Source of the DNA: an uncultured Ignavibacteriota bacterium | GTDB taxonomy: Bacteria > Bacteroidota > Ignavibacteria > UBA10030 > UBA8401 | Direction of reading: 5' to 3' | Assembly (NCBI GenBank): GCA_903884005.1 | Contig: CAISDA010000040.1 | Span: 1,539 to 65,538 of the forward strand | DNA: 64,000 nt | Program-made: the position numbers and the translations under genes | Shown here: piece after piece, positions 3-54,199 of the stretch | Position numbering within the stretch: position 1 is the stretch's first letter | Layout of the letters: each line of letters opens with the position of its first letter | Notes under the pieces: model-generated | The model's input: the letters and a program-made list of their open reading frames with translations, nothing else | The model's database searches: none | Told to the model about the DNA's origin: nothing

Positions 3-1256
3 ATGCAGCAGGCCGGCGTCACATTGAGCTTCAGCGACCTCGTGCAGAATTTTGAGATCGCAAACATCGTGAACGACAGGACCATCAACACAAAATACGG
101 ATACGTGTATCCGACGATCGTCAAGGCAGCCGGAACAACGTTTATGTCGCCGGGGTATACGTCGGCGGGCGACCCGGATATCATACAGCCGTACGGCGCG
201 ATGTACATGAAATTCAAGGCCGGGTCGAATCTGAAGGCGCTGTTCACGGCAGATCCGAATCTTGTCGTGAAGGCGCTGGAGATCACCGCGAGTTCACAAA
301 AACTTGTTGATATCACAAGCGGCGTCCAGTTTGCAGAGCCCGGGTTCGGTTCGACATATCCGGAAATCGATTTTATGATTATCAACCGGGACGCCAGTCA
401 GCATTCGGTCACGTCTGTCATCACAGGTACCGGCGTATCCGCCGTGGAATTAAAATATGAGATTTTCGAACCGTCAGGGTATCTGTCCAACGCCGAGAAC
501 GACACCACATGCGTGACATTCGATGGCGTCTCGGGCGCCAGGCTCGATTCTGTCAAGATCGCATTGCGGCGTCCGGGTTCGATGACGGGCGGCATCTGGA
601 GTCTCAACACGACGACGCGCCGTCCCTTGGGAACACCGCTGGCGGTTCCGATGACCGCAACCAGTACGATGGCCGCGCCGCCCGTGCCGTACCCCGTGCC
701 ATGGCCGAGCTGGGCGACACTCGATGTGCGGTCCAAAAATATCGACGCGTCGAATCCCTTTGTTGTGGCCGTACGGAACGAAGGTGTATACACTGCCGCG
801 CCCCGTGTGATGGTGAGCAAGTACGCAAGCAGCTCGTCGTATCATAGTTTCACATTCCAAAGTACGAACGCAACGCCGGACTGGTATTATTTGAGCGCAA
901 CGGCGGAACCGGACAGCATCTGGCTCTACCATATTCGCGCCTATGTGAGTTTCGGCCCGACCGATGTGCGCAAGCCGATGGAACTCATGCCGTCGACGAC
1001 TGCGCTGGCGCAAAATTATCCGAATCCGTTCAATCCCTCGACAACACTGCAGTTTTCGCTTGCTGCGCGTCAATTTGTGTCGCTGAAAATATACGATGTG
1101 CTCGGTAAGGAGGTAGCCGCCATCGTGAATGACGAACTGCCGGCGGGTACCTATTCCCGCACCTGGAATGCCTCAGCAATGCCGAGCGGCGTGTATTTCT
1201 CGACTCTGAAGGCGGGGGGCGTGACGGAAACAAAGCGCATCGTACTGACAAAGTAA
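3..1256 (+). CDS. Secreted protein (5'-truncated by window edge) with type IX secretion C-terminal sorting domain
   Basis: The long ORF ends in a Por_Secre_tail-like motif (NYPNPFNPSTTLQFSLA...GVYFSTLKAGG...KRIVLTK). The upstream part is Thr/Ser/Pro-rich. Confidence 0.75.
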   Translation: MQQAGVTLSFSDLVQNFEIANIVNDRTINTKYGYVYPTIVKAAGTTFMSPGYTSAGDPDIIQPYGAMYMKFKAGSNLKALFTADPNLVVKALEITASSQKLVDITSGVQFAEPGFGSTYPEIDFMIINRDASQHSVTSVITGTGVSAVELKYEIFEPSGYLSNAENDTTCVTFDGVSGARLDSVKIALRRPGSMTGGIWSLNTTTRRPLGTPLAVPMTATSTMAAPPVPYPVPWPSWATLDVRSKNIDASNPFVVAVRNEGVYTAAPRVMVSKYASSSSYHSFTFQSTNATPDWYYLSATAEPDSIWLYHIRAYVSFGPTDVRKPMELMPSTTALAQNYPNPFNPSTTLQFSLAARQFVSLKIYDVLGKEVAAIVNDELPAGTYSRTWNASAMPSGVYFSTLKAGGVTETKRIVLTK

Positions 1257-1630: not shown

Positions 1631-2035
1631 ATGAAAACGCTCGTAGTGGTTTTGGTATTGGCCGTGGTGAGCACTGCGCTTGCAGTGGCTCTTCCCATTA
1701 AAAGCGGCTCGCTCGTGGCCCGTTCAGACGGGAACAACGTGACCATTCAATGGGGCACGACGGACGAATCGGCGGTAAAGGAATTCGGCATCGAACGCCG
1801 TCCCGCAACCGGAAGTGATTTTGTGCTCGTTGCCACCGTGGCGGCGAAAGGCAGCAACTCGTCGTATGAATACGTGGACCAGACCGCGTTTAAGACCACC
1901 GGCTCGGTGTATCAGTACCGCATCAGGATCGTCGACACCAATTCGGGCGTCAGTTATTCTGAACCGATCAGCGTGTCGCACAATGTCTCGAGTGTGAAGA
2001 GGACGTGGGGAAGTTTGAAGGCGATGTTCCGGTAA
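1631..2035 (+). CDS. Small secreted hypothetical protein, fibronectin-III/Ig-like fold suspected
   Basis: N-terminal signal peptide MKTLVVVLVLAVVSTALAVA; beta-rich sequence (QWGTTDES...YQYRIRIVD); RBS-like GAGGAG upstream of the ATG. Confidence 0.55.
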   Translation: MKTLVVVLVLAVVSTALAVALPIKSGSLVARSDGNNVTIQWGTTDESAVKEFGIERRPATGSDFVLVATVAAKGSNSSYEYVDQTAFKTTGSVYQYRIRIVDTNSGVSYSEPISVSHNVSSVKRTWGSLKAMFR

Positions 2036-2074
2036 CACTTCGGGTGCACTGATAAACATAAAGTTTACACAAAA

Positions 2075-2106
2075 GCCTCTGCACTGTCCCATGCAGAGGC
2101 TTTTGT
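2075..2106. terminator. Bidirectional intrinsic terminator hairpin between convergent genes
   Basis: gcctctgcaCTGTCCCAtgcagaggc stem-loop followed by TTTTGT, with AAAA upstream. It lies between the convergent ORFs at 1631-2035 (+) and 2114-2491 (-). Confidence 0.5.
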
Positions 2107-2113
2107 GTTCATA

Positions 2114-2491
2114 TCACAGATTCGCGAACTTCCACGCGCCGATCCCGCCCTTCAGATTGCCGACGGTAAATCCCGCTTTCTTCAGTTGCACCGCAGCGCT
2201 GCTGCTTCTGCTCCCGCTCGCGCAATAGAGAATCACCTCGCGCGTTTTGTGTTTCTCCAGCGTTTTGATCTTTGCGGACAGTTCGTGCAACGGGATGTGC
2301 AGCGAGCCGGCGATCGACGACTGCTTGCGTTCCGCCGCCGTCCTGACATCCAGGAGCACGCTGCCGGCGCTGACGCGTTCTCTGGCTTCGCCGGGTGTAT
2401 ACTGCGCAATGCCGCGGGACTGCATTTTTTTCCATCCATACACGAGCACGACTGCTCCGGCAAGGACATAATAAAAGGTGAGTGAATCCAT
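2114..2491 (-). CDS. Rhodanese-domain sulfurtransferase with N-terminal membrane anchor
   Basis: Rhodanese fold with active-site Cys context (ILYCASGSRSSSAA) and an N-terminal hydrophobic helix. Confidence 0.8.
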   Translation of the reverse strand: MDSLTFYYVLAGAVVLVYGWKKMQSRGIAQYTPGEARERVSAGSVLLDVRTAAERKQSSIAGSLHIPLHELSAKIKTLEKHKTREVILYCASGSRSSSAAVQLKKAGFTVGNLKGGIGAWKFANL

Positions 2492-2680
2492 GGTGTGCGA
2501 TCTTTCGATAAGGTGTGGAAAGAGAACGTGCTATATCCTATAGGATGCAGGCTGCGGGTGAAACGATTCATTCGGTTGACGGCCTGCTGTTCTCCCGGAC
2601 ACGGGAGTGTTCGGTGCGCATGTACGGTGGAACCCCGGGCACGGTTCGCGTGCGTGGCGTGCAATGCGCGTGCTGCATTG

Positions 2681-2733
2681 AATGAGAAAAAGAGTTTAAA
2701 TGAGAGAAAGAGTTTGAACGAGAAAGTGTTGAC
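2681..2733. repeat. Tandem direct repeat, 18-bp unit x about 2.8 (AATGAGARAAAGAGTTTR)
   Basis: Units aatgagaaaaagagttta / aatgagagaaagagtttg / aacgagaaagtgttgac lie immediately upstream of a -35-like TTGACT. Confidence 0.6.
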
Positions 2734-2757
2734 TTAAAAAAAAATATTAAGTATTTT
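2729..2757 (+). promoter_or_regulatory. Candidate sigma70-like promoter (TTGACT-N17-TATTTT) reading toward the carbamoyltransferase operon
   Basis: TTGACT at 2729-2734, a 17-nt A-rich spacer, TATTTT at 2752-2757. The same architecture recurs upstream of prs (50473-50501) and the nif3-like gene (41058-41086). Confidence 0.35.
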
Positions 2758-3139
2758 GCTCACGAACATTAGAGGACGATTCACACCACGGGGACGAATG
2801 TTCACGAGAGCCTCACCCATACCCGTCGAAGTATACTGCTTCCAGTGAAGTGCATCAGAGTCCGTTCCGCACGACGGGGACTCAGACCGCGAAGCACTTC
2901 AGCCTAGATCGATCCTACCCGGGATCATGTTCTGCATTGCATCCGGTAGTGAATTCAATACAAAATACACCACACTGCGCTCTCCGGCTGCGGCATTGAC
3001 CCGGACTGAGCACCGCGTGTTCAAGAGTAGGGGTATTCTGTTTCTATCGCCGGTGTTTTTCCGGTACATCAACCAACACGCGCTGCGCTCGCCCATGAGC
3101 GCCGGGCAGGCAGTTGACCATCAACCAAGGAGCATCATT

Positions 3140-4060
3140 GTGAAGGCACAAGATTTTCTTTCCGTTCGTGACATGGATGCAGAAGAAATTCATGAAACGT
3201 TCCGCATTGCGCGGGACATGAAGGCTGACCGTAACAAATATTCCGCCGCTTTAAAGGGAGAAACGCTCGCGCTCATTTTCGAGAAGCCGTCGCTGCGCAC
3301 GCGCACATCGTTCGATGTGGGCATTCAGCAGCTGGGCGGATTTTCGCTCTATCTGTCTCCCGCAGAGATCAGCCTCGGCAAGCGCGAATCGGTGCACGAT
3401 GTGGCGAAGAACCTCGAGCGGATGGTGCAGGGCATCATGATCCGGACGTTCGCCCACCAGATCGTGGTGGATATGGCGAAGTATGCGTCGATCCCCGTGA
3501 TCAACGGGCTGACCGATTATTCCCATCCCTGTCAGGCGATGGCCGATTTTTTGACCATCCTCGAACACAAGAAGACCCTGGAAGGGCTGAAACTATGTTA
3601 TGTCGGCGACGGAAATAATGTCGCGCACTCGCTGATGTTCGCGGGCGCGCTGCTCGGCGTCAGCGTCACGGTGTTGTGTCCGCCTGATTTCGAGCCGGAC
3701 CCCGCGGCGCTCACGCAGGCCGTTGAGGACGCGCAAAAAACAGGCGCCGTGATAGAGGTTGTTCATGATCCGATCGAGGGAGTGAAGAACGCGGATGTGA
3801 TCTATACGGATGTGTGGGCCTCGATGGGACAGGAAAGCGAAACGGAAAAACGGAAAAAAATATTTCAGCCGTACCAGGTCAACAGCGGGTTGATGGCGCA
3901 TGCGAAAAGCGATGCGTTGTTCATGCACTGTCTGCCGGCGCACCGGGGCGACGAAGTCACGGATGCGGTGATCGACTCGCCGCAGTCCGTCGTGTTCGAC
4001 GAGGCGGAGAACCGCCTGCATGTGCAGAAGGCGATCATGTACCAGCTGATGAAACCATAA
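3140..4060 (+). CDS. argF: Ornithine carbamoyltransferase (anabolic ArgF or catabolic ArcB)
   Basis: STRTR carbamoyl-phosphate motif, HPCQ and HCLPAHRG ornithine-binding motifs. GTG start is preceded by AAGGAG at -7. An alternative upstream ATG at 3095 has no RBS. Confidence 0.88.
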   Translation: MKAQDFLSVRDMDAEEIHETFRIARDMKADRNKYSAALKGETLALIFEKPSLRTRTSFDVGIQQLGGFSLYLSPAEISLGKRESVHDVAKNLERMVQGIMIRTFAHQIVVDMAKYASIPVINGLTDYSHPCQAMADFLTILEHKKTLEGLKLCYVGDGNNVAHSLMFAGALLGVSVTVLCPPDFEPDPAALTQAVEDAQKTGAVIEVVHDPIEGVKNADVIYTDVWASMGQESETEKRKKIFQPYQVNSGLMAHAKSDALFMHCLPAHRGDEVTDAVIDSPQSVVFDEAENRLHVQKAIMYQLMKP

Positions 4061-4090
4061 CGTCAATACACCCAGTGTGAAAGAAACAGT

Positions 4091-5032
4091 ATGCCTAAAA
4101 CGGCACTCATAGCAATCGGCGGCAACTCGCTCATTCGCGCAGGCGAACGCGGGACGATCGACGAACAGCTCGGCAACGCGCATGCGACAGCCAGAAGCAT
4201 GGTCCAGTTGGTGGCGCGGGGCTGGCGTCTGGTGATCACACACGGCAACGGCCCGCAGGTGGGCGCGGCGCTGCTTCGCTCCGAGCGCGCTGCCGGCGAA
4301 GTCTACTCGCACCCGCTCGACGTCTGCGTAGCGACAACGCAAAGCGAGATCGGCTACATTATACAGCGGGCAGTGGAATACGAACTGCGCCAGATCGGCC
4401 TGTTCACGCCCGTGATGACGGTACTGACGCAGGTGCGCGTGGACGAACACGATCCGGCGTTCCTGCATCCTACGAAACCGATCGGGCCGTTCTATTCGAA
4501 GGCTGACGCCGAAGAAAAGGAACGGACCCTGGGATGGAGCATCGTTGAAGATGCATCCCGCGGCTATCGACGTGTGGTTCCGTCTCCTGAGCCCGTTGAA
4601 GTGTTCGAGCAGGACATTATCCGGAAAATTCTTGACCTGGGCATGATCGTCATCGCCGTCGGAGGCGGGGGAATACCCGTCATAGAAAAAGACAATTATC
4701 TTGTGCTCGGCAGGGAAGCGGTGATCGACAAGGACCGCGCATCGTCACTGCTCGCATCAGAACTCAACACGGACCTCTTTATTATCAGCACCGACGTGCA
4801 ACAGGTGTTTATCGACTATAAGCAGCCGACGCAGCGGGCGGTCGGGAACACGACGGTGAGTGAAATGGAAGGGTACCTGGCGCAAAAGCAGTTCGCCGCG
4901 GGCAGCATGGGACCGAAAGTGGAATCGGCGATCCGCTACATCAAAAAAGGAGGGCAGGAGGCGATCATCACATCGTTCGAGTGCCTTCTGGACGCGGTCG
5001 ACGGAAAAACCGGCACGCATGTGTTTCCCTGA
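4091..5032 (+). CDS. arcC: Carbamate kinase
   Basis: N-terminus MPKTALIAIGGNSL; VITHGNGPQVG motif; amino-acid kinase fold; 313 aa. Directly downstream of the OTC gene. Confidence 0.9.
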   Translation: MPKTALIAIGGNSLIRAGERGTIDEQLGNAHATARSMVQLVARGWRLVITHGNGPQVGAALLRSERAAGEVYSHPLDVCVATTQSEIGYIIQRAVEYELRQIGLFTPVMTVLTQVRVDEHDPAFLHPTKPIGPFYSKADAEEKERTLGWSIVEDASRGYRRVVPSPEPVEVFEQDIIRKILDLGMIVIAVGGGGIPVIEKDNYLVLGREAVIDKDRASSLLASELNTDLFIISTDVQQVFIDYKQPTQRAVGNTTVSEMEGYLAQKQFAAGSMGPKVESAIRYIKKGGQEAIITSFECLLDAVDGKTGTHVFP

Positions 5033-5083
5033 GCACACAGCCGGACACGGTTCCTGACTACATTATTCTGGAGAGACATCCCT

Positions 5084-6001
5084 ATGAAACTCACCCATGT
5101 CATCGAATCTCAACAGTTCACCGTTCCTTCGTTGATGGAATTATTTGACCGCGCCCAGCTGATGGAAAAGATCGCTGCCCGGGGCGGCACCCGCGACTAC
5201 GAGAACAAGATCATGGCGACGCTGTTCTACAAATCGTCGACGCGGACGCGCTTCTCGTTCGAAGCCGCGATGTACCGGCTCGGCGGGAAGGTGCTGGCGA
5301 CCGAGCACGCCAACGAATTTTCTTCGGAGATCGACGGCGGGCAGCTTGAGGATACCATCCGCATCATTGCGAATTGCAGCGATGTCATCGTGCTTCGGCA
5401 TACGGATGAAGGCGCGGCAAAACGTGCGTCGCTCGTGTCGACCGTACCCGTCATCAATGCGGGGGAAGGCGCAGGTGGGCAGCATCCGACGCAGGCGCTC
5501 CTCGACCTCTACACGATCTACAGGGAATGCAAGGCGCTCAACGGGCTGTCCGTTGCACTCATGGGCGAGTTGGACAACGGACGGACCGCGCGGTCGCTGG
5601 CGTACTTGCTCAGCAAATTCGACCGAGTGAAATTGTATTTTATCGCGCCCTCGGAGATACAGATCAAGCCGGACATCCTGGCATATCTGGACAGCCACCG
5701 GGTGCAGTATGAACTTGCCGAGAGCCCGGAACATATTCTCTCGCATGTCGATGTCGTGTATCGCACGCACATTGACCGCGAACGTCTTCAGCGCCGCGAC
5801 ATCGACCTGACGCCATACAACATCAACGCCGGCGTGCTCTCGACGATGAAATCCAATGCGATCATCATGCATCCGCTGCCGCGCTCGGTCGAGATCGATC
5901 CGGCTGTGGACAACGATCCGCGCGCCGTGTATTTTCGCCAGTCGCGCAACGGCCTGTTTGTGCGCATGGCGCTGTTGACAATTCTTTTCGATCAGGGATA
6001 A
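5084..6001 (+). CDS. pyrB: Aspartate carbamoyltransferase-type transcarbamylase (PyrB-like catalytic chain)
   Basis: STRTR, HPTQ and HPLPR motifs are diagnostic of the ATCase branch rather than OTC (HPCQ / HCLP); 305 aa. GGAGAG RBS. Confidence 0.8.
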   Translation: MKLTHVIESQQFTVPSLMELFDRAQLMEKIAARGGTRDYENKIMATLFYKSSTRTRFSFEAAMYRLGGKVLATEHANEFSSEIDGGQLEDTIRIIANCSDVIVLRHTDEGAAKRASLVSTVPVINAGEGAGGQHPTQALLDLYTIYRECKALNGLSVALMGELDNGRTARSLAYLLSKFDRVKLYFIAPSEIQIKPDILAYLDSHRVQYELAESPEHILSHVDVVYRTHIDRERLQRRDIDLTPYNINAGVLSTMKSNAIIMHPLPRSVEIDPAVDNDPRAVYFRQSRNGLFVRMALLTILFDQG

Positions 6002-6063
6002 GCACAGACAACTGAAGGATAGTACGTCGCGTCAATGGAATCATACACAAAGGATATTCCAGC

Positions 6064-7260
6064 ATGAATACGAACGACTATATCGCCCTCGAAGAAGAAT
6101 ACGGCGCGCACAATTATCATCCACTTGATGTGGTGATCGAACGGGCTGAAGGCGTGTGGGTGACGGATGTCGAGGGCCGCCGGTATCTCGACTGCCTCGC
6201 GGCATACTCGGCGCTGAATCAGGGGCATTGCCATCCGAAGATCATGGAGGCATTTGTTGCCCAGGCGAAGAAGGTGACTCTGACAAGCCGTGCGTTCCGT
6301 AACGATCAACTCCCGCTCCTTTATAAGATGCTGCACGACATGACGGGATATGAGATGTCGCTGCCCATGAACTCGGGCGCCGAGGCGGTCGAGACGGCGA
6401 TCAAAGCCGCACGCAAATGGGGCTATACGGTGAAGGGGATCCCCGAGAACAAGGCGGAGATCATCTGCGCCGCCGATAATTTTCACGGGCGGACGACAAC
6501 GATCGTGGGATTTTCGACGGAGGAACAGTACAAAAAAGATTTTGGTCCGTTCACGCCGGGATTCCGCATCGTGAAATTCGGCGACATCGATGCCCTGAAG
6601 AGCGCCATCACGCCGAACACCGCCGCCTTTCTCGTGGAGCCTATACAGGGAGAGGCGGGGATCATTGTGCCGCCCGAGGGGTATCTTCGTGAGGCGGCGC
6701 GGATCTGCAAAGAGCAGAACGTGCTCCTGATCTGCGACGAGATCCAATCGGGCCTCGGCCGCAGCGGCAAGCTCTTCGCATTCGAGTACGACAACATTCG
6801 TCCCGACATGGTCGTCATCGGCAAGGCATTATCAGGAGGTTTCTATCCCGTTTCCGCGGTACTTGCGGACAACAACATCCTCGGCGTCTTCAAGCCCGGC
6901 GAGCACGGCTCGACATTCGGCGGCAATCCGCTTGCCGCGGCCGTCGCCTGTGCCGCGCTGCGCGTGCTTGCGGACGAGGATTTGATCGCGAAATCGTTCG
7001 AGCTCGGCGCATATTTTATGGCGAAGCTCCGCGCGATCGACAGCCCGCATGTCAAGGAGATCCGCGGCCGCGGACTGTGGATAGGATTTGTGCTCGACAC
7101 GCCTGCGCGCCCGTACTGCATCGCGCTGATGAACGAAGGAATTCTCTGCAAGGAGACGCACGAGAATGTCATCCGGTTCGCGCCGCCGCTGGTCATCACG
7201 CGGGAAGAGATCGACTGGGCATGCGAGCGCATTCAAAAAGTTGTCTATGCGATTCACTAA
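6064..7260 (+). CDS. rocD: Ornithine--oxo-acid aminotransferase (class III PLP aminotransferase)
   Basis: OAT-like N-terminus (EYGAHNYHPLDVV), PLP-lysine region (VVIGKALSGG), 398 aa. Confidence 0.85.
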   Translation: MNTNDYIALEEEYGAHNYHPLDVVIERAEGVWVTDVEGRRYLDCLAAYSALNQGHCHPKIMEAFVAQAKKVTLTSRAFRNDQLPLLYKMLHDMTGYEMSLPMNSGAEAVETAIKAARKWGYTVKGIPENKAEIICAADNFHGRTTTIVGFSTEEQYKKDFGPFTPGFRIVKFGDIDALKSAITPNTAAFLVEPIQGEAGIIVPPEGYLREAARICKEQNVLLICDEIQSGLGRSGKLFAFEYDNIRPDMVVIGKALSGGFYPVSAVLADNNILGVFKPGEHGSTFGGNPLAAAVACAALRVLADEDLIAKSFELGAYFMAKLRAIDSPHVKEIRGRGLWIGFVLDTPARPYCIALMNEGILCKETHENVIRFAPPLVITREEIDWACERIQKVVYAIH

Positions 7261-7323
7261 TAATGAACGATCCTCTTTTCGCACTAAAGAGTGAAGCACG
7301 TCAATTATCATTAGGAGCAATCA

Positions 7324-8658
7324 ATGACGAATGCACAGCGAATCACGACGATCATCGTCGGTGCCGCAGGCCGCGATTTTCATAATTTCAATATGATCTA
7401 TCGGGGCAATGAAGCATATGATGTCGTCGCCTTTACGGCCGCGCAGATTCCGAATATTGCAGGCAGAAAATATCCCGCTTCGCTGGCCGGCTCGCTGTAT
7501 CCCTCCGGCATCCCGATCTTCGAGGAACGCGACCTCGAAAAGCTCATCGCAAAATTCAACGTGGAAGAGGTCGTCTTCTCGTACAGCGATGTCACCTATA
7601 ACCACGTCATGAGCATCGGCTCGCGGGTGACGGCGGCCGGCGCGCATTTCAAGCTGCTGAGCGCCGCTCAGACCATGATCAAAAGCACCAAGCCCGTCGT
7701 GTCTGTGTGCGCCGTGCGCACAGGCAGCGGTAAAAGCCAGACAACACGCCGTGTCTCCGCGATCCTGCAGAACCTGGGATACAGTGTGGCGGCAGTGCGT
7801 CATCCGATGCCGTACGGAGACCTTGAAAAACAAAAAGTGCAGCGCTATGCCACACTCGGTGATCTGAAGAAGCACAAATGCACGATCGAGGAGATGGAAG
7901 AGTACGAGCCGCACATTGTGAGCGGCACCATCATCTATGCCGGCGTCGATTACGCGGCGATCCTGGAGCAGGCGGAGAAGGATGCCGACGTGATCATCTG
8001 GGACGGGGGGAATAACGATCTGCCGTTCTATGCGCCCGACCTTCATATCGTCGTAGCCGATCCGCTTCGCACGGGCGACGAGTTGAAATATTTTCCGAGC
8101 GAGGCGAACCTCCGGCTCGCCGATGTTGTCATCATCAACAAGATCGATTCGGCCCTGCCGGACAATGTGACGAAATTGCGCGCCAACATACGCAGCGTCA
8201 ACACAACGGCGAAGATCATCGATGCCGCATCGCCGATCGCGCTCGAGGCGAGCCACACGATCGCCGGCAAGCGCGTGCTGGTGATAGAGGACGGGCCGAC
8301 CTTGACGCACGGTGAAATGAAATTCGGCGCAGGCACAGTCGCCGCGCTTAAATTCGGCGCCGGCGAGATCGTCGATCCGCGTCCGTACGTGAGCGGCGAG
8401 ATGAAGAAAACCTATGAGACCTATCCGAAGATCGGCGTGCTGCTGCCGGCCATGGGGTACAGCAACAAGCAGATCAAAGACCTTGAAGCAACGGTGAACC
8501 GCGTGCCCTGCGATGTTGTCATTATCGGCACGCCGATCGATCTCAGCCGCATCATCAAGATCACGAAACCGGCGCTTCGCGTTACGTACGACCTTCAGGA
8601 GATAGGCCAGCCCGACCTGCTGGCTGTGCTCAGCGACTTCGCCAGAAAAATACACTAA
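7324..8658 (+). CDS. P-loop NTPase, cyclic 2,3-diphosphoglycerate synthetase (cPGS)-like family, function unknown
   Basis: Walker A (VCAVRTGSGKSQTT) and Walker B-like (DVIIWDGG), 444 aa, AGGAG RBS. Operonic with the genes at 3140-7260. Family assignment is from memory of the domain architecture, not a search. Confidence 0.5.
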   Translation: MTNAQRITTIIVGAAGRDFHNFNMIYRGNEAYDVVAFTAAQIPNIAGRKYPASLAGSLYPSGIPIFEERDLEKLIAKFNVEEVVFSYSDVTYNHVMSIGSRVTAAGAHFKLLSAAQTMIKSTKPVVSVCAVRTGSGKSQTTRRVSAILQNLGYSVAAVRHPMPYGDLEKQKVQRYATLGDLKKHKCTIEEMEEYEPHIVSGTIIYAGVDYAAILEQAEKDADVIIWDGGNNDLPFYAPDLHIVVADPLRTGDELKYFPSEANLRLADVVIINKIDSALPDNVTKLRANIRSVNTTAKIIDAASPIALEASHTIAGKRVLVIEDGPTLTHGEMKFGAGTVAALKFGAGEIVDPRPYVSGEMKKTYETYPKIGVLLPAMGYSNKQIKDLEATVNRVPCDVVIIGTPIDLSRIIKITKPALRVTYDLQEIGQPDLLAVLSDFARKIH

Positions 8659-8661: not shown

Positions 8662-9258
8662 ATGCCAAAACTCCCGGACACGATCATTTTAGCCTCACGG
8701 TCGCCGAGGCGGGCGCAGCTGCTGCGCCAGATCGGCGTCGCATTTGAAACATCGGTATGCGATATCGATGAACTCTTCGACCCCGCGATGACACCCGTAG
8801 AAAATGCGCGGGCGCTTTCCTATATGAAGGCGGCAGATGTCGCCAGCCGCTACAGGCGGGGTATCGTGCTCGGATCCGATACGATCGTCGTGCTGGACGG
8901 CATGCTGCTGGGAAAGCCCGTGTCGGAGGAGGATGCCCGGCGCATGCTGCGCACGCTCAGCGGCAGAACGCACACCGTCGTTACCGGATTTGCGCTTGTT
9001 GATGCGGAGTCAAAAAAATCATATATTGATTGCGAACAGACCGATGTTACATTCCGGTCGCTTGACGACGACGAGATCGCCGCATATGTTGCCGCAGGGT
9101 CGCCCATGGATAAAGCGGGGGCGTACGGCATCCAGGACGATTTCGGCGCCGTATTCGTCGAACGCATCGCGGGTGATTACTACACCGTGGTCGGCCTGCC
9201 ATTATCGAAAGTTTACTGTGCGTTACAGCAGTTCATGACATTACTACAAAAAGGATAA
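8662..9258 (+). CDS. maf: Maf-like nucleoside triphosphate pyrophosphatase
   Basis: N-terminus IILASRSPRRAQLL and overall Maf/Ham1 signature; 198 aa. Confidence 0.9.
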   Translation: MPKLPDTIILASRSPRRAQLLRQIGVAFETSVCDIDELFDPAMTPVENARALSYMKAADVASRYRRGIVLGSDTIVVLDGMLLGKPVSEEDARRMLRTLSGRTHTVVTGFALVDAESKKSYIDCEQTDVTFRSLDDDEIAAYVAAGSPMDKAGAYGIQDDFGAVFVERIAGDYYTVVGLPLSKVYCALQQFMTLLQKG

Positions 9259-9261: not shown

Positions 9262-9663
9262 ATGGAGAAAAAAATTCGAATATTGATCGCGAAGGCCGGT
9301 TTGGACGGCCACGATCGCGGTGCGAAAGTGATCGCGGCGGCACTGCGCGATGCAGGCATGGAAGTGATTTATACCGGATTGCGCAAGTCTCCGGAAATGA
9401 TCGTTGAATCCGCGCTGCAGGAAGATGTGGACGGGATAGGGATCAGTTCTCTCAGCGGCGCCCATATGACCATCTTCCCGAAGGTTGTTGCGCTCATGAA
9501 GGAAAAGGGGATCAGCGACATCATTCTCTTCGGCGGGGGAATCATTCCTCAGGCGGACATTGACGCATTGAAGGCGCTCGGCGTGGGCGAATTATTCACG
9601 CCCGGCACGCCGACGCAAGCCATCGTCGAGTACCTCACGACGGCCTGCGGCGTCACCACGTAA
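9262..9663 (+). CDS. Stand-alone cobalamin (B12)-binding domain protein (methylmalonyl-CoA mutase C-terminal-domain-like)
   Basis: DxHxxG B12-binding motif ([11 protein letters not shown]), Rossmann-like fold, 133 aa. Confidence 0.8.
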
Positions 9664-9821
9664 GCGCTTCGTTCCGGGGACTGCGCGATGTGCGCGTTCC
9701 CCGGAGCGTCTGCTCCATCCTGCAGTTCCTCCCCCCACCGAGTGTGCAATGCTTCAGCCGGTTCGCTTCTTCAGATTGGCAGGGAAGGACGGTCCGCGCG
9801 ACGCGGCGTTCTCTATATCCG

Positions 9822-12170
9822 TTATTGTGATTCGTCCAATTCAATGGGCGCATGGCCCGGGAGCGTTTCGGCCGGAGTGTCTGTGCGCGTGTTCCGGATG
9901 CGGATGCCCGACGCATCGAATCCGAACAGATCGTCGCTGGTAAAGATCTGCTGAAAGTCCTTCTCCGCAAAGAAGACGCGGAATTTATCCGAAAGCTCAT
10001 CGAGGCGTTTCAGGTAAAAGCCGGTGTTCTCGTCGGGAAAATTTTCGTCCCACAGGAATGCTTCCTTGACGTTCCTGAAGCCGGTGATCGAGGCGTCCTT
10101 TCCCGTGAAGTAATAGGCGACCCGTTCGCCGAGCCTCACGGGGCGTTTCGACTGAATGACCGCTTCATAGACCGCCGCCCGGTTGCGCCTTCCCGTCCTG
10201 ACTCCGTCTTCATAGTCTTCCAGCGTCTCTTTGATCGTGTCGGTCCGTGTAAAGTCTGCTGCAGTCATTTCGTGGAAACGGAGCGAGTGGACGAGCTCGA
10301 TATAAAACCGGTGCATGTCGCCGAATTGCTCATTCAACAAGCATTCGATGCACTGCCGGAGGAATACCCGCCCGAAGCGTTCGATATTCCTGGACAGGAG
10401 GGACGAGCCCTTGATCGTCACCTTGTTGCGGTGGTCGAGCAGCGCGTAGTTCTTTTTTTTGTAACTGAGCATCTTCGTATACCTGCCGCTGAATCCGAGC
10501 GTGATGCCGTCGGGAAGAAGTGATGAAAGCCGGCCGACGAACTCCCGTTCCGCATGGGTGCCCGCGACATTATCGGGCGGAATACAATAGAGCCCGTCTG
10601 TGTCCACCTCTATGACGGTGCCGTTGTTCAACGTGATATCGTGGATAAGCCGGCGCAGCAGTTCCTGGCCCGATGTGGTGACTTCATCGGCCCGGTCATA
10701 GTCGTTGAACAGCGCCCTTGAATATCCCAGGTATCCGTAAAATGAATTGATCAGCACTTTGAGCGATGACTGCAGCGCGTCGGTTTGCGCGAGCGCGGAT
10801 GCATCGGTCAGCGTCTGGAGTTCCCGTTTCGCCTCGAGCCGTTTCGTTGTGAGAAACCGGAGCGCGGTCGTGAACACATCCAGTGCATCGGTGGCGGGCC
10901 TGATGCCGCGGGTCAGCATGAGAGAGGGGTACAGGGAATCGACATCCGCGTGGACGATCGGCCCGAATACGCCGGTGGCGAAGATATCGGTGTAGCCGCC
11001 CGATGTCTGGAAGCCCTGCTGTGGCTTCGGAAGAGAATGGCGCTGGCGGATGTACGCACGCAGAAAGATCGCTTCGATCTTTGCGGCGGAGCCGAGTTTT
11101 GCCAGCGTTCCGAAATTGAACGGGAGCATCTGCGCCAGGTAGAAGGCCGACCCGAGCAGCGTGTCGCTGACGGCTCGCGTGTCTCTCGCATTCTCCGCCG
11201 CATGCCGGTGGAGAGCACCGGGATCGTGTTCCCACGACCAGGAGACCTTGTCGTCGGGAATGTACTCGCGTCCGGCTGCGGCAGCCCCGAAAAATTGCGC
11301 CGCGTAGTGCAGGCTGTAGCTCTCCATCGAGTGCCGGGATGCGTCGTACGACTGCAAGAGCAACCATGTGTCTATGATGTGCCGGCCGGCGATCTCGAAA
11401 CTCGTGTATTCCACGGTGGTCTCGGCAAACATTGTCCGTGTTGAATGCGTGGAGGGGACCGTTCCGTCGCGCCCCAGGGCGCATTCGATCGAGTGCAGTT
11501 CGCAGCGTTTCATGATGTAGGGCAGCACGGCCGAATAGCAATGATGCGCCTCGATGACGTCGGGATCCTTCTCGCGGACGAGTGCGATGAATTCGGCAAG
11601 GAGTTTTTGTTCGCCGCCGCGCCTGTTTCCCAGCACCTTCTCCCAACCGCGGTTGTCCGACAGCGCGATCACGACGATGCTGTCGTCGAGGCGCTCGGCA
11701 TTGCTCGTGCGGTGCGCCTTCGAGTACGTCTCGATGTCGATCTGCATGCGGTACAGGTCGCCGGCCTCCATCCCCTTGAAGAGCGTCTTGCCCGACTGGA
11801 GCAGGTATTGCGTCGTCATGTCCGGACGGAAGAATATGTGTTCCGTGTCCAGGTACGATGTGACAGGCGTTTGGTAATATGCGCTGATTTTGCGCAGGGC
11901 GAATTGCACCGCTTCCCACGCATCGAAGGAGGATTGAAACGCGCACAGGTACTGATAAAAATTCGTGCCGTCGAGTTTCTTCAGCCAGAATTTTTTGGGA
12001 AAGCCGTCCATGAACCGCGAATCGGACAGGTGGAAGAAGGGGAAAAATTCGACATCACTCGATTCCACGGCGGCGCTTGTCCGCTTGTACACGCGGATCG
12101 ACGAGCCTCCCACCGGGTGGAGAGCGACGATGTGTGTCTCATCGTTATGTCCGAAGAGCAGTGAATCCAT
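9822..12170 (-). CDS. polB: Family B DNA polymerase (E. coli Pol II-like)
   Basis: Exo I DIETYS; motif A DVDSLYPSLM; motif B KVLINSFYGYLG; motif C VIEVDTDGLY; KKRY-like SYKKKNYALL. Length 782 aa (E. coli Pol II is 783 aa) with co-linear DPDVI and LGRD regions. Confidence 0.85.
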   Translation of the reverse strand: MDSLLFGHNDETHIVALHPVGGSSIRVYKRTSAAVESSDVEFFPFFHLSDSRFMDGFPKKFWLKKLDGTNFYQYLCAFQSSFDAWEAVQFALRKISAYYQTPVTSYLDTEHIFFRPDMTTQYLLQSGKTLFKGMEAGDLYRMQIDIETYSKAHRTSNAERLDDSIVVIALSDNRGWEKVLGNRRGGEQKLLAEFIALVREKDPDVIEAHHCYSAVLPYIMKRCELHSIECALGRDGTVPSTHSTRTMFAETTVEYTSFEIAGRHIIDTWLLLQSYDASRHSMESYSLHYAAQFFGAAAAGREYIPDDKVSWSWEHDPGALHRHAAENARDTRAVSDTLLGSAFYLAQMLPFNFGTLAKLGSAAKIEAIFLRAYIRQRHSLPKPQQGFQTSGGYTDIFATGVFGPIVHADVDSLYPSLMLTRGIRPATDALDVFTTALRFLTTKRLEAKRELQTLTDASALAQTDALQSSLKVLINSFYGYLGYSRALFNDYDRADEVTTSGQELLRRLIHDITLNNGTVIEVDTDGLYCIPPDNVAGTHAEREFVGRLSSLLPDGITLGFSGRYTKMLSYKKKNYALLDHRNKVTIKGSSLLSRNIERFGRVFLRQCIECLLNEQFGDMHRFYIELVHSLRFHEMTAADFTRTDTIKETLEDYEDGVRTGRRNRAAVYEAVIQSKRPVRLGERVAYYFTGKDASITGFRNVKEAFLWDENFPDENTGFYLKRLDELSDKFRVFFAEKDFQQIFTSDDLFGFDASGIRIRNTRTDTPAETLPGHAPIELDESQ

Positions 12171-12359
12171 GCACTAATATATACGCCAGCGGGATAAAAG
12201 CAAAAAATAATGAAGGGGAACGACATCGTATCGTGCGGCCTGCCTCAGCCGCTTTGCTCCGAAGGAAATGACAGTGAATGAGAACTGATCGCTTGTGGCC
12301 GGGCGGTTTAAAACACAACACGTCCGGAGCGTTGCCCGGACGTGTTGTGACATGTACAG

Positions 12360-12446
12360 CGGAGAGGGTGGGATTCGAACCCACGGAACGCTTTCACGTT
12401 CACACACTTTCCAGGCGTGCCAGTTCAACCACTCCTGCACCTCTCC
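12360..12446 (-). tRNA. tRNA-Ser (anticodon GGA), class II
   Basis: On the minus strand the sequence reads GGAGAGG...CCTCTCC+G. Anticodon arm is CACGC-CTGGAAA-GTGTG, with a long variable arm and T-arm CGTGG-GTTCGAAT-CCCAC. Confidence 0.85.
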
Positions 12447-12491
12447 GGGATAAAACGGATGTGTGTACACCTGCCTTGCTTTATTTCCTAG

Positions 12492-12578
12492 CGGAGAGGG
12501 AGAGATTCGAACTCTCGATACCCTTACGAGTACACTAGTTTTCGAGACTAGCTCTTTCAACCACTCAGACACCTCTCC
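12492..12578 (-). tRNA. tRNA-Ser (anticodon CGA), class II
   Basis: Minus-strand sequence GGAGAGGTGTCTGAGTGGTTGAAAGAGCTAGTCTCGAAAACTAG...GAGAGTTCGAATCTCTCCCTCTCCG; anticodon loop CTCGAAA. Confidence 0.85.
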
Positions 12579-40296: not shown

Positions 40297-40950
40297 TCAA
40301 TGTACCACTGCCAGAATTGTTTCACCGGCAACGGTTTTTTGTTGGAGGGTTGCGCGGACCGCTGCTGAGGCCGGCACATAAATGTCGACCCGCGACCCGA
40401 ATTTGATCATGCCGAACCGTTTCCCCGCAATCACCTGCTCGCCTTCGGTGAGAGGACACACGATGCGCCTTGCCACGAAGCCCGCGATCTGCTTGAAGAA
40501 GATCCGTGTTCCGTTTGCTGTCTCGATGCCGATGTGCGTCTGTTCGTTCTTCAACGATGCCTTCTCTTCAAAGGCGGCAAAATATTCGCCGGCAATGTGT
40601 CGCACGTAGCGCACCGTTCCCGTGACCGGAATTCTGTTCACATGCACGTTCAGCGGCGACATGAAAATACTGATCTGTGTCGCCTTGCCGTGCATGAAGA
40701 TTGTTTCATCGACTTCGGTAATGCCGATCACGGTGCCGTCTGCTGGAGAGAGGATCTGGGAACTGCCTGGAGGCGATACGCGCTCGGGGTCGCGGAAAAA
40801 ATAGGCGGTGAAAATGAAAAACACACCCGCCGCAGCGATCAGCGTGTATTTCAAAAATAGATGCGAGACAAAAAAATAGGAGCCAAGGATAAGTAGAACG
40901 CACAGCGCCGTTATCGTAACAAAAACATCAAAGCCGTATTCTGTAATCAC
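40297..40950 (-). CDS. psd: Phosphatidylserine decarboxylase proenzyme (short archaeal-type)
   Basis: The self-cleavage FGS motif (KFGSRVD) and Psd fold; 217 aa. Confidence 0.85.
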   Translation of the reverse strand: MITEYGFDVFVTITALCVLLILGSYFFVSHLFLKYTLIAAAGVFFIFTAYFFRDPERVSPPGSSQILSPADGTVIGITEVDETIFMHGKATQISIFMSPLNVHVNRIPVTGTVRYVRHIAGEYFAAFEEKASLKNEQTHIGIETANGTRIFFKQIAGFVARRIVCPLTEGEQVIAGKRFGMIKFGSRVDIYVPASAAVRATLQQKTVAGETILAVVH

Positions 40951-41057
40951 TCGGTGAACTCCGCCCTGCTGTCAAAAAAAATCGCGTGAAATTGTACAAT
41001 TGCCTGAGAATGATACCAAATAATGGGTGCAAAGTCAAGGTGTAGCCGCTCGAGGTA

Positions 41058-41086
41058 TTGATTTTAATCCATGATTTCATTATTTT
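41058..41086 (+). promoter_or_regulatory. Candidate promoter TTGATT-N17-TATTTT for the nif3-like operon
   Basis: Same architecture as the candidates at 2729 and 50473. Located in the AT-richer divergent region between psd and the nif3-like gene. Confidence 0.3.
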
Positions 41087-41203
41087 AATACAATGATAAA
41101 CCAAATGAGTACACGACTTGTGAAGACAAGGATCCTGACAATCATAACAGACTGCGGAACGAGCAATTTTTCTGCCGTGAGTGAGCAACGTAAATTTTAA
41201 GAA

Positions 41204-41236
41204 TGTCCCGACTATAAAGAGCGGGACATTTTTTTT
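41204..41236 (+). terminator. Terminator-like hairpin plus U8 in the leader, 15 nt upstream of the nif3-like start
   Basis: tgtcccgACTATAAAGAgcgggaca followed by TTTTTTTT. The GTCCCG/CGGGAC stem is the same as in the rimP leader hairpin. Confidence 0.5.
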
Positions 41237-41251
41237 GACCGGACCTGTGCC

Positions 41252-42358
41252 ATGACGATCGCCGAATGCACGCAGCTCTTTGAACGAACGACGCCGCCGG
41301 GCACCGCGTGGAAGCACGACAATATCGGCCTGCTCGTCGGGCGCAGCGACGCCGTCATCACGAATATTCTTGTCACGCTCGATGTGACGATGGACACGGC
41401 GAAAGAGGCCCTGCGCAGGAAGGCGAATCTGATCGTCGCACATCATCCGGTCATTTTCCGTCCGCTCTCGGCGGTGACGTCGTCGAGCCGCACCGGGGCG
41501 CTGGTGATGTTTCTCATCGAAAACAATATCGCCGTCTATGCGGCGCATACGAATTTCGACAGCGTCCGTCACGGCGTCAGCTTCGCTCTCGCGGCCGCTC
41601 TCGGTCTGCAGTCGTGTGTCGTCCTGTCTCCGATGAAGGACAGTTTCACGAAGATCACGGTCTTCGTTCCCGCATCGCACGCCGAACAGGTCGCCCGCGC
41701 GATGCACGCTGCGGGCGGCGGCATGTTTTCGAACTATGAGCACTGCAGTTTCCGCGCTGAAGGCGTGGGCACGTTCACGGCCATTGGAGATGCGCGTCCG
41801 TACATCGGACACCGCGGGGTGCCTGAAACAACGCCGGAGATCAGGCTCGAGATGCTTGTCGAACGCTGGAAGGTGAACGCCGTCGTCGCGGCGATGCGCC
41901 AGGCGCATCCGTACGAGGAGATCGCCTTCGACGTGTATGCGCTGGAAAACACAAACAGCGAATACGGTCTCGGTGCACTCGGCATGCTGCCTCGCGCCGT
42001 GGCGGGGCGGAAATTGCTGTCGCTTGTCAAAGGCGCGCTCGGCGCCGAAGGACTCCGGTATGCCGGAGATGTACAGCGGCAGGTCACGCGCGTAGCCGTC
42101 TGCGGCGGCGGCGGAGGCGATCTTTTCGCCGATGCGCTCGCCGGCAATGCGGATGCCTTTGTGACGGCGGATCTGAAATATCATCAGATGCAGGACGCCT
42201 CCGCCGGCATGCTGGTGATCGATGCGGGACATTTTGAAACTGAACATATCGCGCTCGCCCCTCTCGCCGCACAACTGCGGAAGATCGGCATTGCAGCCGG
42301 CGCGCGCACGAAGACTTTTGTTGCACACAGCTCCACGAACCCGATTCATTTTTGTTAA
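41252..42358 (+). CDS. Nif3-family dinuclear metal center protein (YqfO/YbgI-like)
   Basis: Nif3 motifs (VAHHP, TNFD...) with an inserted PII-like domain; 368 aa. Confidence 0.85.
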   Translation: MTIAECTQLFERTTPPGTAWKHDNIGLLVGRSDAVITNILVTLDVTMDTAKEALRRKANLIVAHHPVIFRPLSAVTSSSRTGALVMFLIENNIAVYAAHTNFDSVRHGVSFALAAALGLQSCVVLSPMKDSFTKITVFVPASHAEQVARAMHAAGGGMFSNYEHCSFRAEGVGTFTAIGDARPYIGHRGVPETTPEIRLEMLVERWKVNAVVAAMRQAHPYEEIAFDVYALENTNSEYGLGALGMLPRAVAGRKLLSLVKGALGAEGLRYAGDVQRQVTRVAVCGGGGGDLFADALAGNADAFVTADLKYHQMQDASAGMLVIDAGHFETEHIALAPLAAQLRKIGIAAGARTKTFVAHSSTNPIHFC

Positions 42359-42421
42359 TGTTAACGGCGGCATGCGCTGAATCCACAGCGCCTTGCCGCC
42401 AATGAAGCTAAGGAGAGACCA

Positions 42422-43156
42422 TTGGAAGAAAGACTTCGTACATTGTACACGCTCCAAATGATCGATGCGAATTTATTTAAACTCGAAGAATCAAAAGGAG
42501 ATTTGCCGGGTATCGTTCGCCAGCTGCGCGAGGACGTCGCCGTGCTGGAAGATTCGATCAAACAAAAGCGGGACCTTATGTCGGAGACCGTCGCTGCCCG
42601 CAATAAAGCCGACGAAGACCTGATCGAGTTCACCGAAAAACTCGAACGCTACAAATCGCAGCAGTACCAGGTCCGCAACAATAAAGAGTACGACGCGATC
42701 ACCAAAGAGATCGAATTTGCGGTGGAATCGATCGCGACCCTTCAGAGCCAGTTTCTGTCATTTGAAGCCACCATGAGCTCGGCCACATTGGACATCGATG
42801 CGCTGACGTTGAAACTGGACGAGAAGCAGGAAGAACTCGCCGAGAAGGCGGTTGAACTGGCGAAAGTATCCGAGACGACCGAAGAAGAGGAGTCGAAACT
42901 CCGCTCGGCACGCGATACGGTTGCGGCCCTCGTCTCGCCGGAGGATATTGCGCAGTACGAACGCATCAGGAGCGCTCGAGGCATCGTTTCCGTCGCCGTG
43001 ATCTGGAAAAATAAATGCTGCAGCGGATGCAAGAACCAGATCCCGCCCCAGCACCTGATCGAGATCAGGAAGAATGACGCACTCTATATGTGCCAGCACT
43101 GCGGCCGCATGATCGTGTCCGATCAGCTTGCCACGACGGTGGACGCCGAAGTATGA
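42422..43156 (+). CDS. C4-type zinc-ribbon domain protein (DUF164 family) with coiled coil
   Basis: Long coiled-coil N-terminus and a C-terminal CxxC...CxxC ribbon (CSGCKNQI...CQHCGRMIV). Typical partner of nif3. Confidence 0.8.
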   Translation: MEERLRTLYTLQMIDANLFKLEESKGDLPGIVRQLREDVAVLEDSIKQKRDLMSETVAARNKADEDLIEFTEKLERYKSQQYQVRNNKEYDAITKEIEFAVESIATLQSQFLSFEATMSSATLDIDALTLKLDEKQEELAEKAVELAKVSETTEEEESKLRSARDTVAALVSPEDIAQYERIRSARGIVSVAVIWKNKCCSGCKNQIPPQHLIEIRKNDALYMCQHCGRMIVSDQLATTVDAEV

Positions 43157-43718: not shown

Positions 43719-43837
43719 CTTCATCTGCCGGCGCCTGCCCTCGTTGGCATAGCGCCCCAAACACAGAATTAATTCATTCATCTCTCATACTCACGCTGAC
43801 GTCACGGCTATCCACACCGGCAGACGGTGTGCGCACG

Positions 43838-44340
43838 TCAGGCAATCGCGTTAGTTGCATTTGTCAATTAAGGAGGAAAGTCCGAACTCTCTTCTCTTCT
43901 TTCACAAGAAGACAAGGGGCACGGTGCCGGATAACATCCGGGGGGAGCGATCCTACGGAAAGTGTCACAGAAAATATACCGTCCCGTCTGTACGACGGGA
44001 TAAGGGTGAAATGGTGCGTCCTGCAATCAAGCGGGATTAAAGTAAGAGCGCACCGCGTTTCCAGCAATGGAAACGGCATGACAAACCCCACCGAGAGCAA
44101 GACCATGTAGGTTCCGTTGTTCTCCCCGCGTTGAAAGCGCGGGAGAACGAAGAGATGCCCACTCAACGCTGTGCTCGACGCGCGGTGACGGAACGGGTAG
44201 GTCGCTTGAACCGCGCAGCAATGCGTCGGTCAGAGAAATGATTGCCTCTTCCCCCTTCCGCTGTGTGTCTATGGCGGTTGTAGGAACAGACAGAATTCGG
44301 CTTATCGACGCGCCGCTTCGGCTCGCCGGTCTGGAATGCC
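43838..44340 (+). ncRNA. rnpB: RNase P RNA (bacterial type A); boundaries approximate (+/- 30 nt)
   Basis: Recalled type A conserved blocks: AGGAGGAAAGTCCG (P4 5' strand); GGGCACGGTGCCGG and ATAACATCCGGGGGG; AGGGTGAAATGGTGCG...GTAAGAGCGCACC; ACAAACCCCACCGAGAGCAAG; ACAGAATTCGGCTTAT (P4 3' strand). Confidence 0.8.
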
Positions 44341-46164: not shown

Positions 46165-46226
46165 ACGGTGTAACAGGCGATATTTAAATTCATTCGTCAC
46201 TACGACAAGCCAAGGAGAAATATTTT

Positions 46227-46976: not shown

Positions 46977-47008
46977 TGATTCCATCGTGCGTTCACCGTC
47001 ATTTTACT

Positions 47009-54134: not shown

Positions 54135-54164
54135 GTTCCCTGCATGGCTACGTTTGAATTCTCA

Positions 54165-54199
54165 CCTGACTGTCGGTTTCGACAGTCAGGTTTTTTTTT
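54165..54199 (+). terminator. Intrinsic terminator after rplI
   Basis: cctgactgtcgGTTTcgacagtcagg followed by TTTTTTTTT. Confidence 0.65.

Follow-up and report, generated by a model that had tools for sequence, protein, structure and literature searches.

Five consecutive genes at positions 3140-8658 (plus strand) of a 64,000-nt stretch of DNA from an uncultured Ignavibacteriota bacterium (contig CAISDA010000040.1; the whole stretch is called the window below) were analysed computationally. With a probability of roughly 80%, the locus is interpreted as a bacterial arginine synthetase pathway operon, arranged arcB-arcC-pyrB*-oat-arcE, in which PyrB* most likely has a function other than that of an aspartate carbamoyltransferase (ATCase). 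The genes encode an ornithine carbamoyltransferase (OTC), a carbamate kinase (CK), PyrB*, which is an ATCase-branch transcarbamylase paralog, an ornithine delta-aminotransferase (OAT), and a 444-aa P-loop protein which sequence, fold and context place with high confidence in the ArcE (arginine synthetase) family. The five open reading frames (ORFs) and their coordinates had been given correctly in a preliminary description of the sequence, and are separated by intergenic gaps of 30, 51, 62 and 63 nt (Table 1). The novelty lies in a conserved bacterial arrangement of five genes that incorporates OAT, and in a CK-linked ATCase paralog whose aspartate site has been dismantled; no publication was found describing either the five-gene cluster or the paralog.

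OTC, CK and OAT were identified by family models. The OTC scored 437.6 bits against NF001986 (cut-off 306) and 411 bits against TIGR00658 (cut-off 280.85), and its translation contains the DxxxSMG loop (as DVWASMG) and HCLP. The CK scored 374.4 bits against TIGR00746 (cut-off 358.25), and the OAT 552.5 bits against the ornithine--oxo-acid transaminase model TIGR01885 (cut-off 378.4).

Assignment of the 444-aa protein to ArcE

No Pfam or NCBIfam family matched the 444-aa protein. A Walker A motif (VRTGSGKSQ) lies at residues 131-139 and a G4-like NKID at residues 272-275. The databases list more than 8000 relatives, either as 'predicted GTPase' or as 'cyclic 2,3-diphosphoglycerate synthase' (cDPGS), and those from Bacteroidota and Ignavibacteriales metagenome-assembled genomes are 75-100% identical to the window protein. 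ArcE was described in 2024 from Thermococcus kodakarensis (TK2200), where it converts arginine, ADP and phosphate to citrulline, NH3 and ATP (PMC11032458). Its homologs, delimited there by a BLASTP threshold of E <= 1e-10, had carried labels such as hypothetical protein or putative GTPase. They resemble cDPGS weakly and are spread over many bacteria, with Bacteroidota and Acidobacteria among them; Hyperthermus and Pyrodictium are among the genera listed as carriers (PMC11032458). The single homolog in Hyperthermus butylicus (CP000493.1) is 48% identical to the window protein over 430 residues (E = 1e-146), and the homolog in Pyrodictium occultum is 45% identical (E = 1e-130).

A similar picture was obtained from structure prediction and gene context. 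When an AlphaFold2 model of the window protein (pLDDT 84.7) was used as a Foldseek query, the first match was cDPGS 8oru (1.3e-18, 15% identity), followed by LpxK 4ehy (8.5e-9), and the AlphaFold model of TK2200p also resembles LpxK 4EHY (PMC11032458). No ArcE structure was found in the PDB. ArcE genes often lie near arcB or arcC, and their distribution is complementary to that of arginine deiminase (PMC11032458). A natural CK-ArcE fusion was also found (P0130, 766 aa), with an N-terminal CK domain 42% identical to the CK of the window (E = 1e-76) and a C-terminal ArcE domain. Another homolog, P0218 (806 aa), carries an inserted LAGLIDADG intein.

The likeness to cDPGS pointed out in the preliminary description is fair as a remote one (9sxb, E = 0.0024 by phmmer), but what that description called an uncharacterised P-loop NTPase is a homolog of ArcE, the arginine synthetase (PMC11032458). 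The Methanothermus fervidus cDPGS (8ORK/8ORU) shares with it a similar length, a P-loop fold and a two-domain architecture, as expected of a remote homolog, but differs in substrate and biology, with an identity of about 15% and a TM-score of about 0.45. A true cDPGS, or a generic GTPase with no connection to arginine, would agree with the names given by NCBI and JGI, with the first place of cDPGS in Foldseek and with the NKID motif, but is barely credible: phmmer gave E = 0.26 for 8ork/8oru, the phmmer matches to cDPGS cover only about 110-145 residues, and the gene is linked to CK and OTC and even fused to CK. The cDPGS assignment was rejected because similarity to the M. fervidus enzyme is this marginal, whereas the Hyperthermus and Pyrodictium proteins of the ArcE type are 45-48% identical to the window protein. 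Many ArcE-family proteins (P0008, P0012, P0041, P0110, P0301 and others) are named cDPGS by NCBI and 'predicted GTPase' by JGI. On bacterial members of the family, the cDPGS name is most likely a misannotation.

Pfam and NCBIfam scans of window ORFs revealed neither an arginine deiminase nor an ArcD-type antiporter, so that their absence, noted in the preliminary description, stands. The arginine-to-citrulline step, however, is not missing, because the ArcE homolog would be that step (PMC11032458). The puzzle of the absent deiminase is thus resolved by the pathway published in 2024.

Predicted pathway and its direction

In the proposed pathway, ArcE would convert arginine, a nucleoside diphosphate and phosphate to citrulline, NH3 and the nucleoside triphosphate, replacing arginine deiminase and conserving one extra ATP equivalent. 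OTC would then phosphorolyse citrulline to ornithine and carbamoyl phosphate (CP), from which CK, with ADP, would produce a second ATP along with CO2 and NH3, and OAT would remove ornithine as glutamate semialdehyde/pyrroline-5-carboxylate. Citrulline phosphorolysis is thermodynamically unfavourable. The ArcE reaction is near equilibrium (ΔG°' = -6.8 kJ/mol; PMC11032458). Since one step is near equilibrium and the next unfavourable, the presence in the operon of the product-removing enzymes CK and OAT makes thermodynamic sense, as these would pull both steps forward. Consumption of ornithine by OAT would also mean that no arginine/ornithine antiporter is needed.

The preliminary description had regarded OTC, CK and OAT as a catabolic, ATP-yielding module, and this was supported by the CK and rocD-type OAT equivalogs, which are catabolic markers, and by the presence in the same window of argH, encoding argininosuccinate lyase (54154-55623, plus strand; TIGR00838, 592 bits). 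ArcE has been argued to be catabolic where argininosuccinate synthetase and lyase exist (PMC11032458), and by that reasoning argH favours the catabolic direction; argG was not seen within the window. The operon could instead be anabolic, with OTC making citrulline and ArcE using citrulline, NH3 and ATP to make arginine in place of argininosuccinate synthetase and lyase. ArcE is reversible and supports growth of T. kodakarensis on citrulline, and an anabolic role was suggested by the same authors where ArgG and ArgH are lacking (PMC11032458). Such a role is very unlikely here, given argH, the two catabolic markers, and a window scan that detected no carAB or other arginine biosynthesis genes near the operon.

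A further anabolic scheme, raised in the preliminary description, has CK running in reverse to make CP for both OTC (arginine) and ATCase (pyrimidines). Anabolic CK-like enzymes have been proposed for Pyrococcus, but the scheme found no support here and is highly improbable. Disruption of arcC had little effect in T. kodakarensis, where CP comes from ArcE/ArcB or carbamoyl phosphate synthetase rather than from CK (PMC13260591). Reverse CK activity would also leave ArcE and OAT unexplained, would be at odds with argH, and would supply a PyrB* that has no aspartate site (see below).

The closest known system is the arginine synthetase pathway of T. kodakarensis, consisting of ArcE (TK2200), ArcB (TK0871) and ArcC (TK2158) (Michimori et al. 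2024, 2026; PMC11032458, PMC13260591). Shared with it are the same three enzyme families, the lack of arginine deiminase, OAT downstream of ornithine, and a CP pool tied to an ATCase-type protein; in both, ArcE is a P-loop protein annotated as GTPase- or cDPGS-like with LpxK and cDPGS as structural neighbours. The window, however, comes from a mesophilic bacterium of the Fibrobacteres-Chlorobi-Bacteroidetes (FCB) group, and its genes lie in one operon that includes OAT and the ATCase paralog, whereas the locus tags TK0871, TK2101, TK2158 and TK2200 indicate dispersed genes. With argH in the window, arginine auxotrophy is not implied. The arginine deiminase pathway, arcABC(D), likewise combines OTC and CK steps in an operon that yields substrate-level ATP from arginine. 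It differs in that the hydrolytic ArcA, which has an amidinotransferase fold, is replaced here by the unrelated, ATP-conserving ArcE, and in that ornithine would be consumed by OAT rather than exported, with no ArcD antiporter in the window.

This assignment connects a defined energy-conserving reaction with a puzzling annotation that is very common in soil and sediment bacteria, 'GTPase / cDPG synthase' (Ignavibacteria, Bacteroidota, Acidobacteriota and numerous further phyla), and suggests that a two-ATP arginine fermentation may be widespread outside archaea. In relatives, secreted peptidases with type IX secretion system (T9SS) tails adjoin the module, including a secreted M1 aminopeptidase directly upstream, which fits a peptide-degrading, arginine-catabolising lifestyle.

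Conservation of the five-gene module

Linkage was counted in two sets of loci, with flanks viewed up to 10 kb. The first was the best 80 bacterial species loci from a GTDB scan seeded with ArcE, and the second the best 80 loci from a JGI metagenome scan seeded with PyrB* and found by PyrB*-specific peptide patterns, so that the linkage frequencies below describe the PyrB* subfamily and not all ATCase relatives. The order OTC-CK-PyrB*-OAT-ArcE was found, amid unrelated flanking genes, in Ignavibacteriales/Bacteroidota contigs (L005, L007-L009 and L011; L002 has the module without OAT), in Acidobacteriota/Vicinamibacterales contigs (L012-L014), and again when a search was started from PyrB* (L090 and L091). 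Among the ArcE-seeded loci, CK was present in 24/80, directly downstream of ArcE in 18 of those, and OTC in 9/80.

Linkage was tighter when viewed from PyrB*. In every PyrB*-seeded locus with enough flanking sequence, CK lies directly upstream (69/69) and OTC upstream (49/49), and OAT lies downstream in 54 of 62. ArcE falls inside 18 of the 22 loci with room on both sides, 12 with the order ArcE-OTC-CK-PyrB*-OAT and six with ArcE last. All sampled contexts were OTC-CK-PyrB*, and none was a pyrimidine (pyr) context. A five-gene arrangement of this kind is far beyond chance, and, contrary to the preliminary description, it is not unusual for FCB-group bacteria, being common in Ignavibacteria-type and Acidobacteriota contigs. 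A sixth conserved gene was sought around the module as a clue to the substrate of PyrB*, but no candidate was shared by more than 6 of the 93 loci. Since no other flanking gene is conserved, the module is self-contained and appears to move between phyla. Such a compact, self-contained operon offers a setting in which a bacterial ArcE could be studied.

Remodelling of the aspartate site in PyrB*

PyrB* scored 278.8 bits against the ATCase model TIGR00670, above its cut-off of 236.95, and 253.1 bits against NF002032, below its cut-off of 263. Among solved structures it comes closest to Arabidopsis PYRB (6ypo, E = 7.7e-91). Every known ATCase is said to carry the signatures RxQxER and FxExSTR; R229 and Q231 anchor the beta-carboxylate of aspartate, while R167 and K84 help to position the alpha-carboxylate (PMC4581275). 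Both signatures fail in the PyrB* of the window, which has FYKSSTR for FxExSTR and HIDRER for RxQxER. In E. coli ATCase numbering, used throughout, the substitutions are E50 to K, K84 to D, D162 to E, R229 to H and Q231 to D, and the 240s loop is shortened. All five of these residues are kept in the Arabidopsis, Methanocaldococcus jannaschii, human CAD and Pyrococcus abyssi ATCases and in the canonical pyrB products of the sampled loci.

The CP site, by comparison, is intact. S52-T-R-T55 (STRTR), R105, H134-P-T-Q137 and HPLP are all retained in the window protein, as is R167, and across 121 orthologs the CP site is effectively invariant, the sole exceptions being two substitutions at R54. The aspartate-contact positions vary in the same alignment. 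Position 231 is D in 81 sequences, R in 19, L in 15, N in three, another residue in three and never Q; position 84 is E in 64, K in 20, R in 15, H in 11, D in four and Q in three; position 50 is K in 51, R in 33 and E in 15, with others in the remainder; and position 229 is R in 78, H in 42 and K in one. HPLP is present in 121/121, with [RH]I[DRLN] at the RxQ position.

The start of the plant-type CP loop, E-F-S-S, is also retained, including the Phe that confers inhibition by uridine monophosphate (UMP) on plant ATCase (PMC7878868). With Arabidopsis PYRB (6YPO; PMC7878868), its closest solved structure, PyrB* thus shares the E-F-S-S motif with the UMP-inhibition Phe and the lack of a regulatory subunit gene alongside, no pyrI having been found within the 64-kb window. 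The plant enzyme, however, is a true ATCase with E50, K84 (K166 in Arabidopsis), R229 and Q231, which PyrB* has lost along with part of the 240s loop. A decaying pseudogene was considered and rejected, as the ORF is intact and identity is 65-93% across phyla. The suggestion in the preliminary description that the gene is not an ordinary pyrB therefore agrees with the failure of the ATCase signatures and the constant linkage to CK. All PyrB* proteins are named 'aspartate carbamoyltransferase' in databases, which looks like a systematic misannotation. Correction of this name and of those carried by the ArcE family would remove two systematic misannotations.

Alternative interpretations and the role of PyrB*

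Several observations weigh against the interpretation of the locus as an arginine synthetase operon with a PyrB* that is not an ATCase. The ArcE assignment is an indirect one, reached through a chain of homology via Hyperthermus and Pyrodictium together with gene context. A complete guanine-type NKxD (G4) motif is present in 119/120 of the close, FCB-clade relatives (P0001-P0120) as well as in the window protein, whereas crenarchaeal homologs (P0290-P0408) mostly have [TN]K[VAI]S, with 116/120 lacking the Asp. TK2200p prefers ADP, with GDP at 8.4%. The NKxD motif is a hint that the bacterial clade may use GDP/GTP rather than ADP, and the bacterial proteins could depart from the archaeal enzyme in their nucleotide or even in particulars of the reaction. 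In 44/80 of the GTDB loci ArcE is solitary, and no homolog of CK, OTC, OAT or pyrB was detected to a distance of about 9 kb. PyrB* scores above the cut-off of an NCBIfam equivalog model for ATCase, and its identity to a genuine plant ATCase is 50-55%. A canonical pyrB-pyrI pair directly follows arcE on the same strand in seven Bacteroidales-type loci (L020, L027, L039, L049, L054, L055 and L066) and lies about 5 kb from arcE in two more (L044 and L053). Finally, ArcE and ArcB supply CP for pyrimidines in T. kodakarensis, where their disruption leads to pyrimidine auxotrophy (PMC13260591).

The last two points, by analogy, would suit a PyrB* that is a working but atypical ATCase, channelling arginine-derived CP into pyrimidines, possibly with plant-like feedback by UMP. 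The TIGR00670 score, the close relationship to Arabidopsis PYRB and the retained EFSS motif with its Phe are also in keeping with this role. The canonical pyrB of the Bacteroidales-type arcE loci, which keeps K84, R229 and Q231 in loci that have no CK or OTC, represents an independent ArcE-ATCase linkage. For PyrB* itself an ATCase role has genuine support but is unlikely, as both signatures fail, Q231 is found in 0/121 orthologs, and the gene is attached to CK and never in a pyr context. In most orthologs K84 has moreover given way to Glu, Asp, His, Arg or Gln; in E. coli ATCase, K84Q and K84R mutants are essentially inactive.

PyrB* is most likely a CP-binding protein that is not an aspartate carbamoyltransferase, judging from its residue pattern. 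The leading reading, which corresponds to the second alternative of the preliminary description, is that an ATCase-like enzyme phosphorolyses a carbamoyl donor other than citrulline. PyrB* would then be a transcarbamylase with a non-aspartate partner that works with CK, a possibility held at somewhat less than even odds. It would exchange the carbamoyl group between CP and a non-aspartate acceptor alongside CK, most plausibly in the phosphorolytic direction, feeding CP to CK, and the acceptor would probably keep the alpha-carboxylate but have a neutral or cationic side chain. Carbamoyl-aspartate, which the preliminary description had named as an example of such a donor, is unlikely because the beta-carboxylate site (Q231 and partly R229) and K84 have been lost.

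PyrB* might instead have no catalytic function, acting as a CP/UMP-binding sensor or regulator, or as a scaffold that channels CP between OTC and CK. The aspartate-contact positions drift with no new conserved set (E/K/R/H/D/Q at 84, D/R/L/N at 231 and K/R/E/S/A/Q at 50), while the phosphate/CP ligands and the UMP-related Phe stay constant and adjacency to CK is strict. For Pyrococcus, there are reports of CP being channelled between CK-like enzymes and transcarbamylases. A non-catalytic role nevertheless seems quite doubtful, since the catalytic residues R105, H134 and Q137 and the HPLP motif are all kept, overall identity is 65-93%, as for an enzyme, and neither gene fusions nor gene overlaps hint at a complex.

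A precedent for an enzyme of the kind favoured here, a transcarbamylase with a non-aspartate partner, is the UGTCase of Rubrobacter xylanophilus, a pseudo-ATCase encoded beside carbamate kinase that is a ureidoglycine carbamoyltransferase (Barba et al. 2013, PMC4016543). Pseudo-ATCase groups 1-3 have HPLA, H[ST]LP and HSLP, respectively, and at the RxQ position AIA/AIS/SIA, Gx[SC] and VxP (PMC4016543). PyrB* fits the general concept of a pseudo-ATCase, being an ATCase-annotated paralog of the ATCase branch that keeps STRT and HPTQ, has lost RxQ, and occurs in a non-pyrimidine context; like group 1, it adjoins carbamate kinase in a catabolic cluster. It differs in keeping HPLP with [RH]-I-[DRLN] at the RxQ position, in its context of OTC, OAT and ArcE rather than allantoinase or xanthine dehydrogenase genes, and in its origin from the plant-type (UMP-inhibited) ATCase lineage. 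Identification as UGTCase or as a member of groups 1-3 was rejected on the mismatch of the HPLP and RxQ-position motifs. From these differences in motifs and context, PyrB* is read as a further, undescribed group of pseudo-ATCases, a fourth kind.

A broader proposal is offered tentatively, at a little under even odds. PyrB* would found a widespread fourth pseudo-ATCase family, descended from plant-type, UMP-binding ATCases and serving as an obligate partner of CK and OTC in bacterial arginine synthetase modules. It would either act on a non-aspartate substrate, for example in energy-conserving phosphorolysis of an N-carbamoyl-alpha-amino acid or other ureido compound, or be a CP/UMP-sensing pseudoenzyme, and the accompanying bacterial ArcE clade may be GDP/GTP-dependent. 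PyrB* is a highly conserved orphan, an ATCase look-alike always linked to CK; its substrate, once solved, would extend the transcarbamylase family and could uncover a new way in which the CP pool is fed or controlled.

Gene organization and flanking features

The features of the locus and its immediate surroundings are collected in Table 1. The OTC start was placed at the GTG, which is preceded by a ribosome-binding site (AAGGAG, 3128-3133). An upstream ATG at 2927 was rejected as the start, since the family match begins only at residue 73 of the longer ORF. The promoter candidate is weak, as six such sites were found in the region and 3.6 were expected by chance, and the terminator-like hairpin is weak as well, sites of this kind being rarer in the region than expected by chance. 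An Rfam scan of the leader (2760-3139) for riboswitches gave no match, and the leader sequence is not conserved in relatives. The roughly 1.1 kb upstream of arcB (2035-3139) has no confident gene; two ORFs there, 2105-2485 (plus strand) and 2233-2664 (minus strand), have no family.

Table 1. Coordinates of the probable arginine synthetase locus and adjacent features in the window.
Feature	Product or description	Position	Strand	Evidence
arcB/argF	OTC, 306 aa	3140..4060	+	GTG start, hidden Markov model match
arcC	CK, 313 aa	4091..5032	+	TIGR00746 equivalog
pyrB*	PyrB*, ATCase-branch transcarbamylase paralog, 305 aa	5084..6001	+	TIGR00670; CP site intact, aspartate site remodelled
rocD/oat	OAT, 398 aa	6064..7260	+	TIGR01885, Pfam Aminotran_3
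arcE	Arginine synthetase homolog, 444 aa P-loop NTPase	7324..8658	+	Homology, fold, context
maf	Nucleotide pyrophosphatase	8662..9258	+	Pfam Maf 212 bits, TIGR00172 193.8 bits
B12-binding subunit gene	Methylmalonyl-CoA-mutase-type B12-binding small subunit	9262..9663	+	TIGR00640 162.4 bits, Pfam B12-binding
Promoter candidate	Sigma-70-like, TTGACT-17-TATTTT, about 380 nt upstream of arcB	2729..2757	+	Consensus scan
Terminator-like hairpin	First on the plus strand after the gene string	9794..9806	+	Pattern scan, weak

The maf gene starts 3 nt after the arcE stop codon, and the B12-binding subunit gene 3 nt after that of maf, and both are probably co-transcribed with arcE in this genome. This arrangement recurs in just one relative, the near-identical contig L001, and the others lack it; the two genes lie outside the conserved module and are species-specific passengers. 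Convergent with the operon is a gene for a family B DNA polymerase of 782 aa with a weak match to Pol II models (9822-12170, minus strand), and two adjacent tRNA-Ser genes with anticodons GGA and CGA lie at 12359-12578 (minus strand).

T9SS C-terminal sorting domains were found in the window in proteins encoded at 3-1256 (plus strand) and 61731-63641 (minus strand), and in relatives at 4695-6731 of L002 and 1679-3637 of L007; those of the window confirm an FCB-group host. Two ORFs without a Pfam family, of 509 aa (40928-42457) and 261 aa (46200-46985), are located on the minus strand. A class A RNase P RNA (222.5 bits) is encoded at 43831-44320 on the plus strand.

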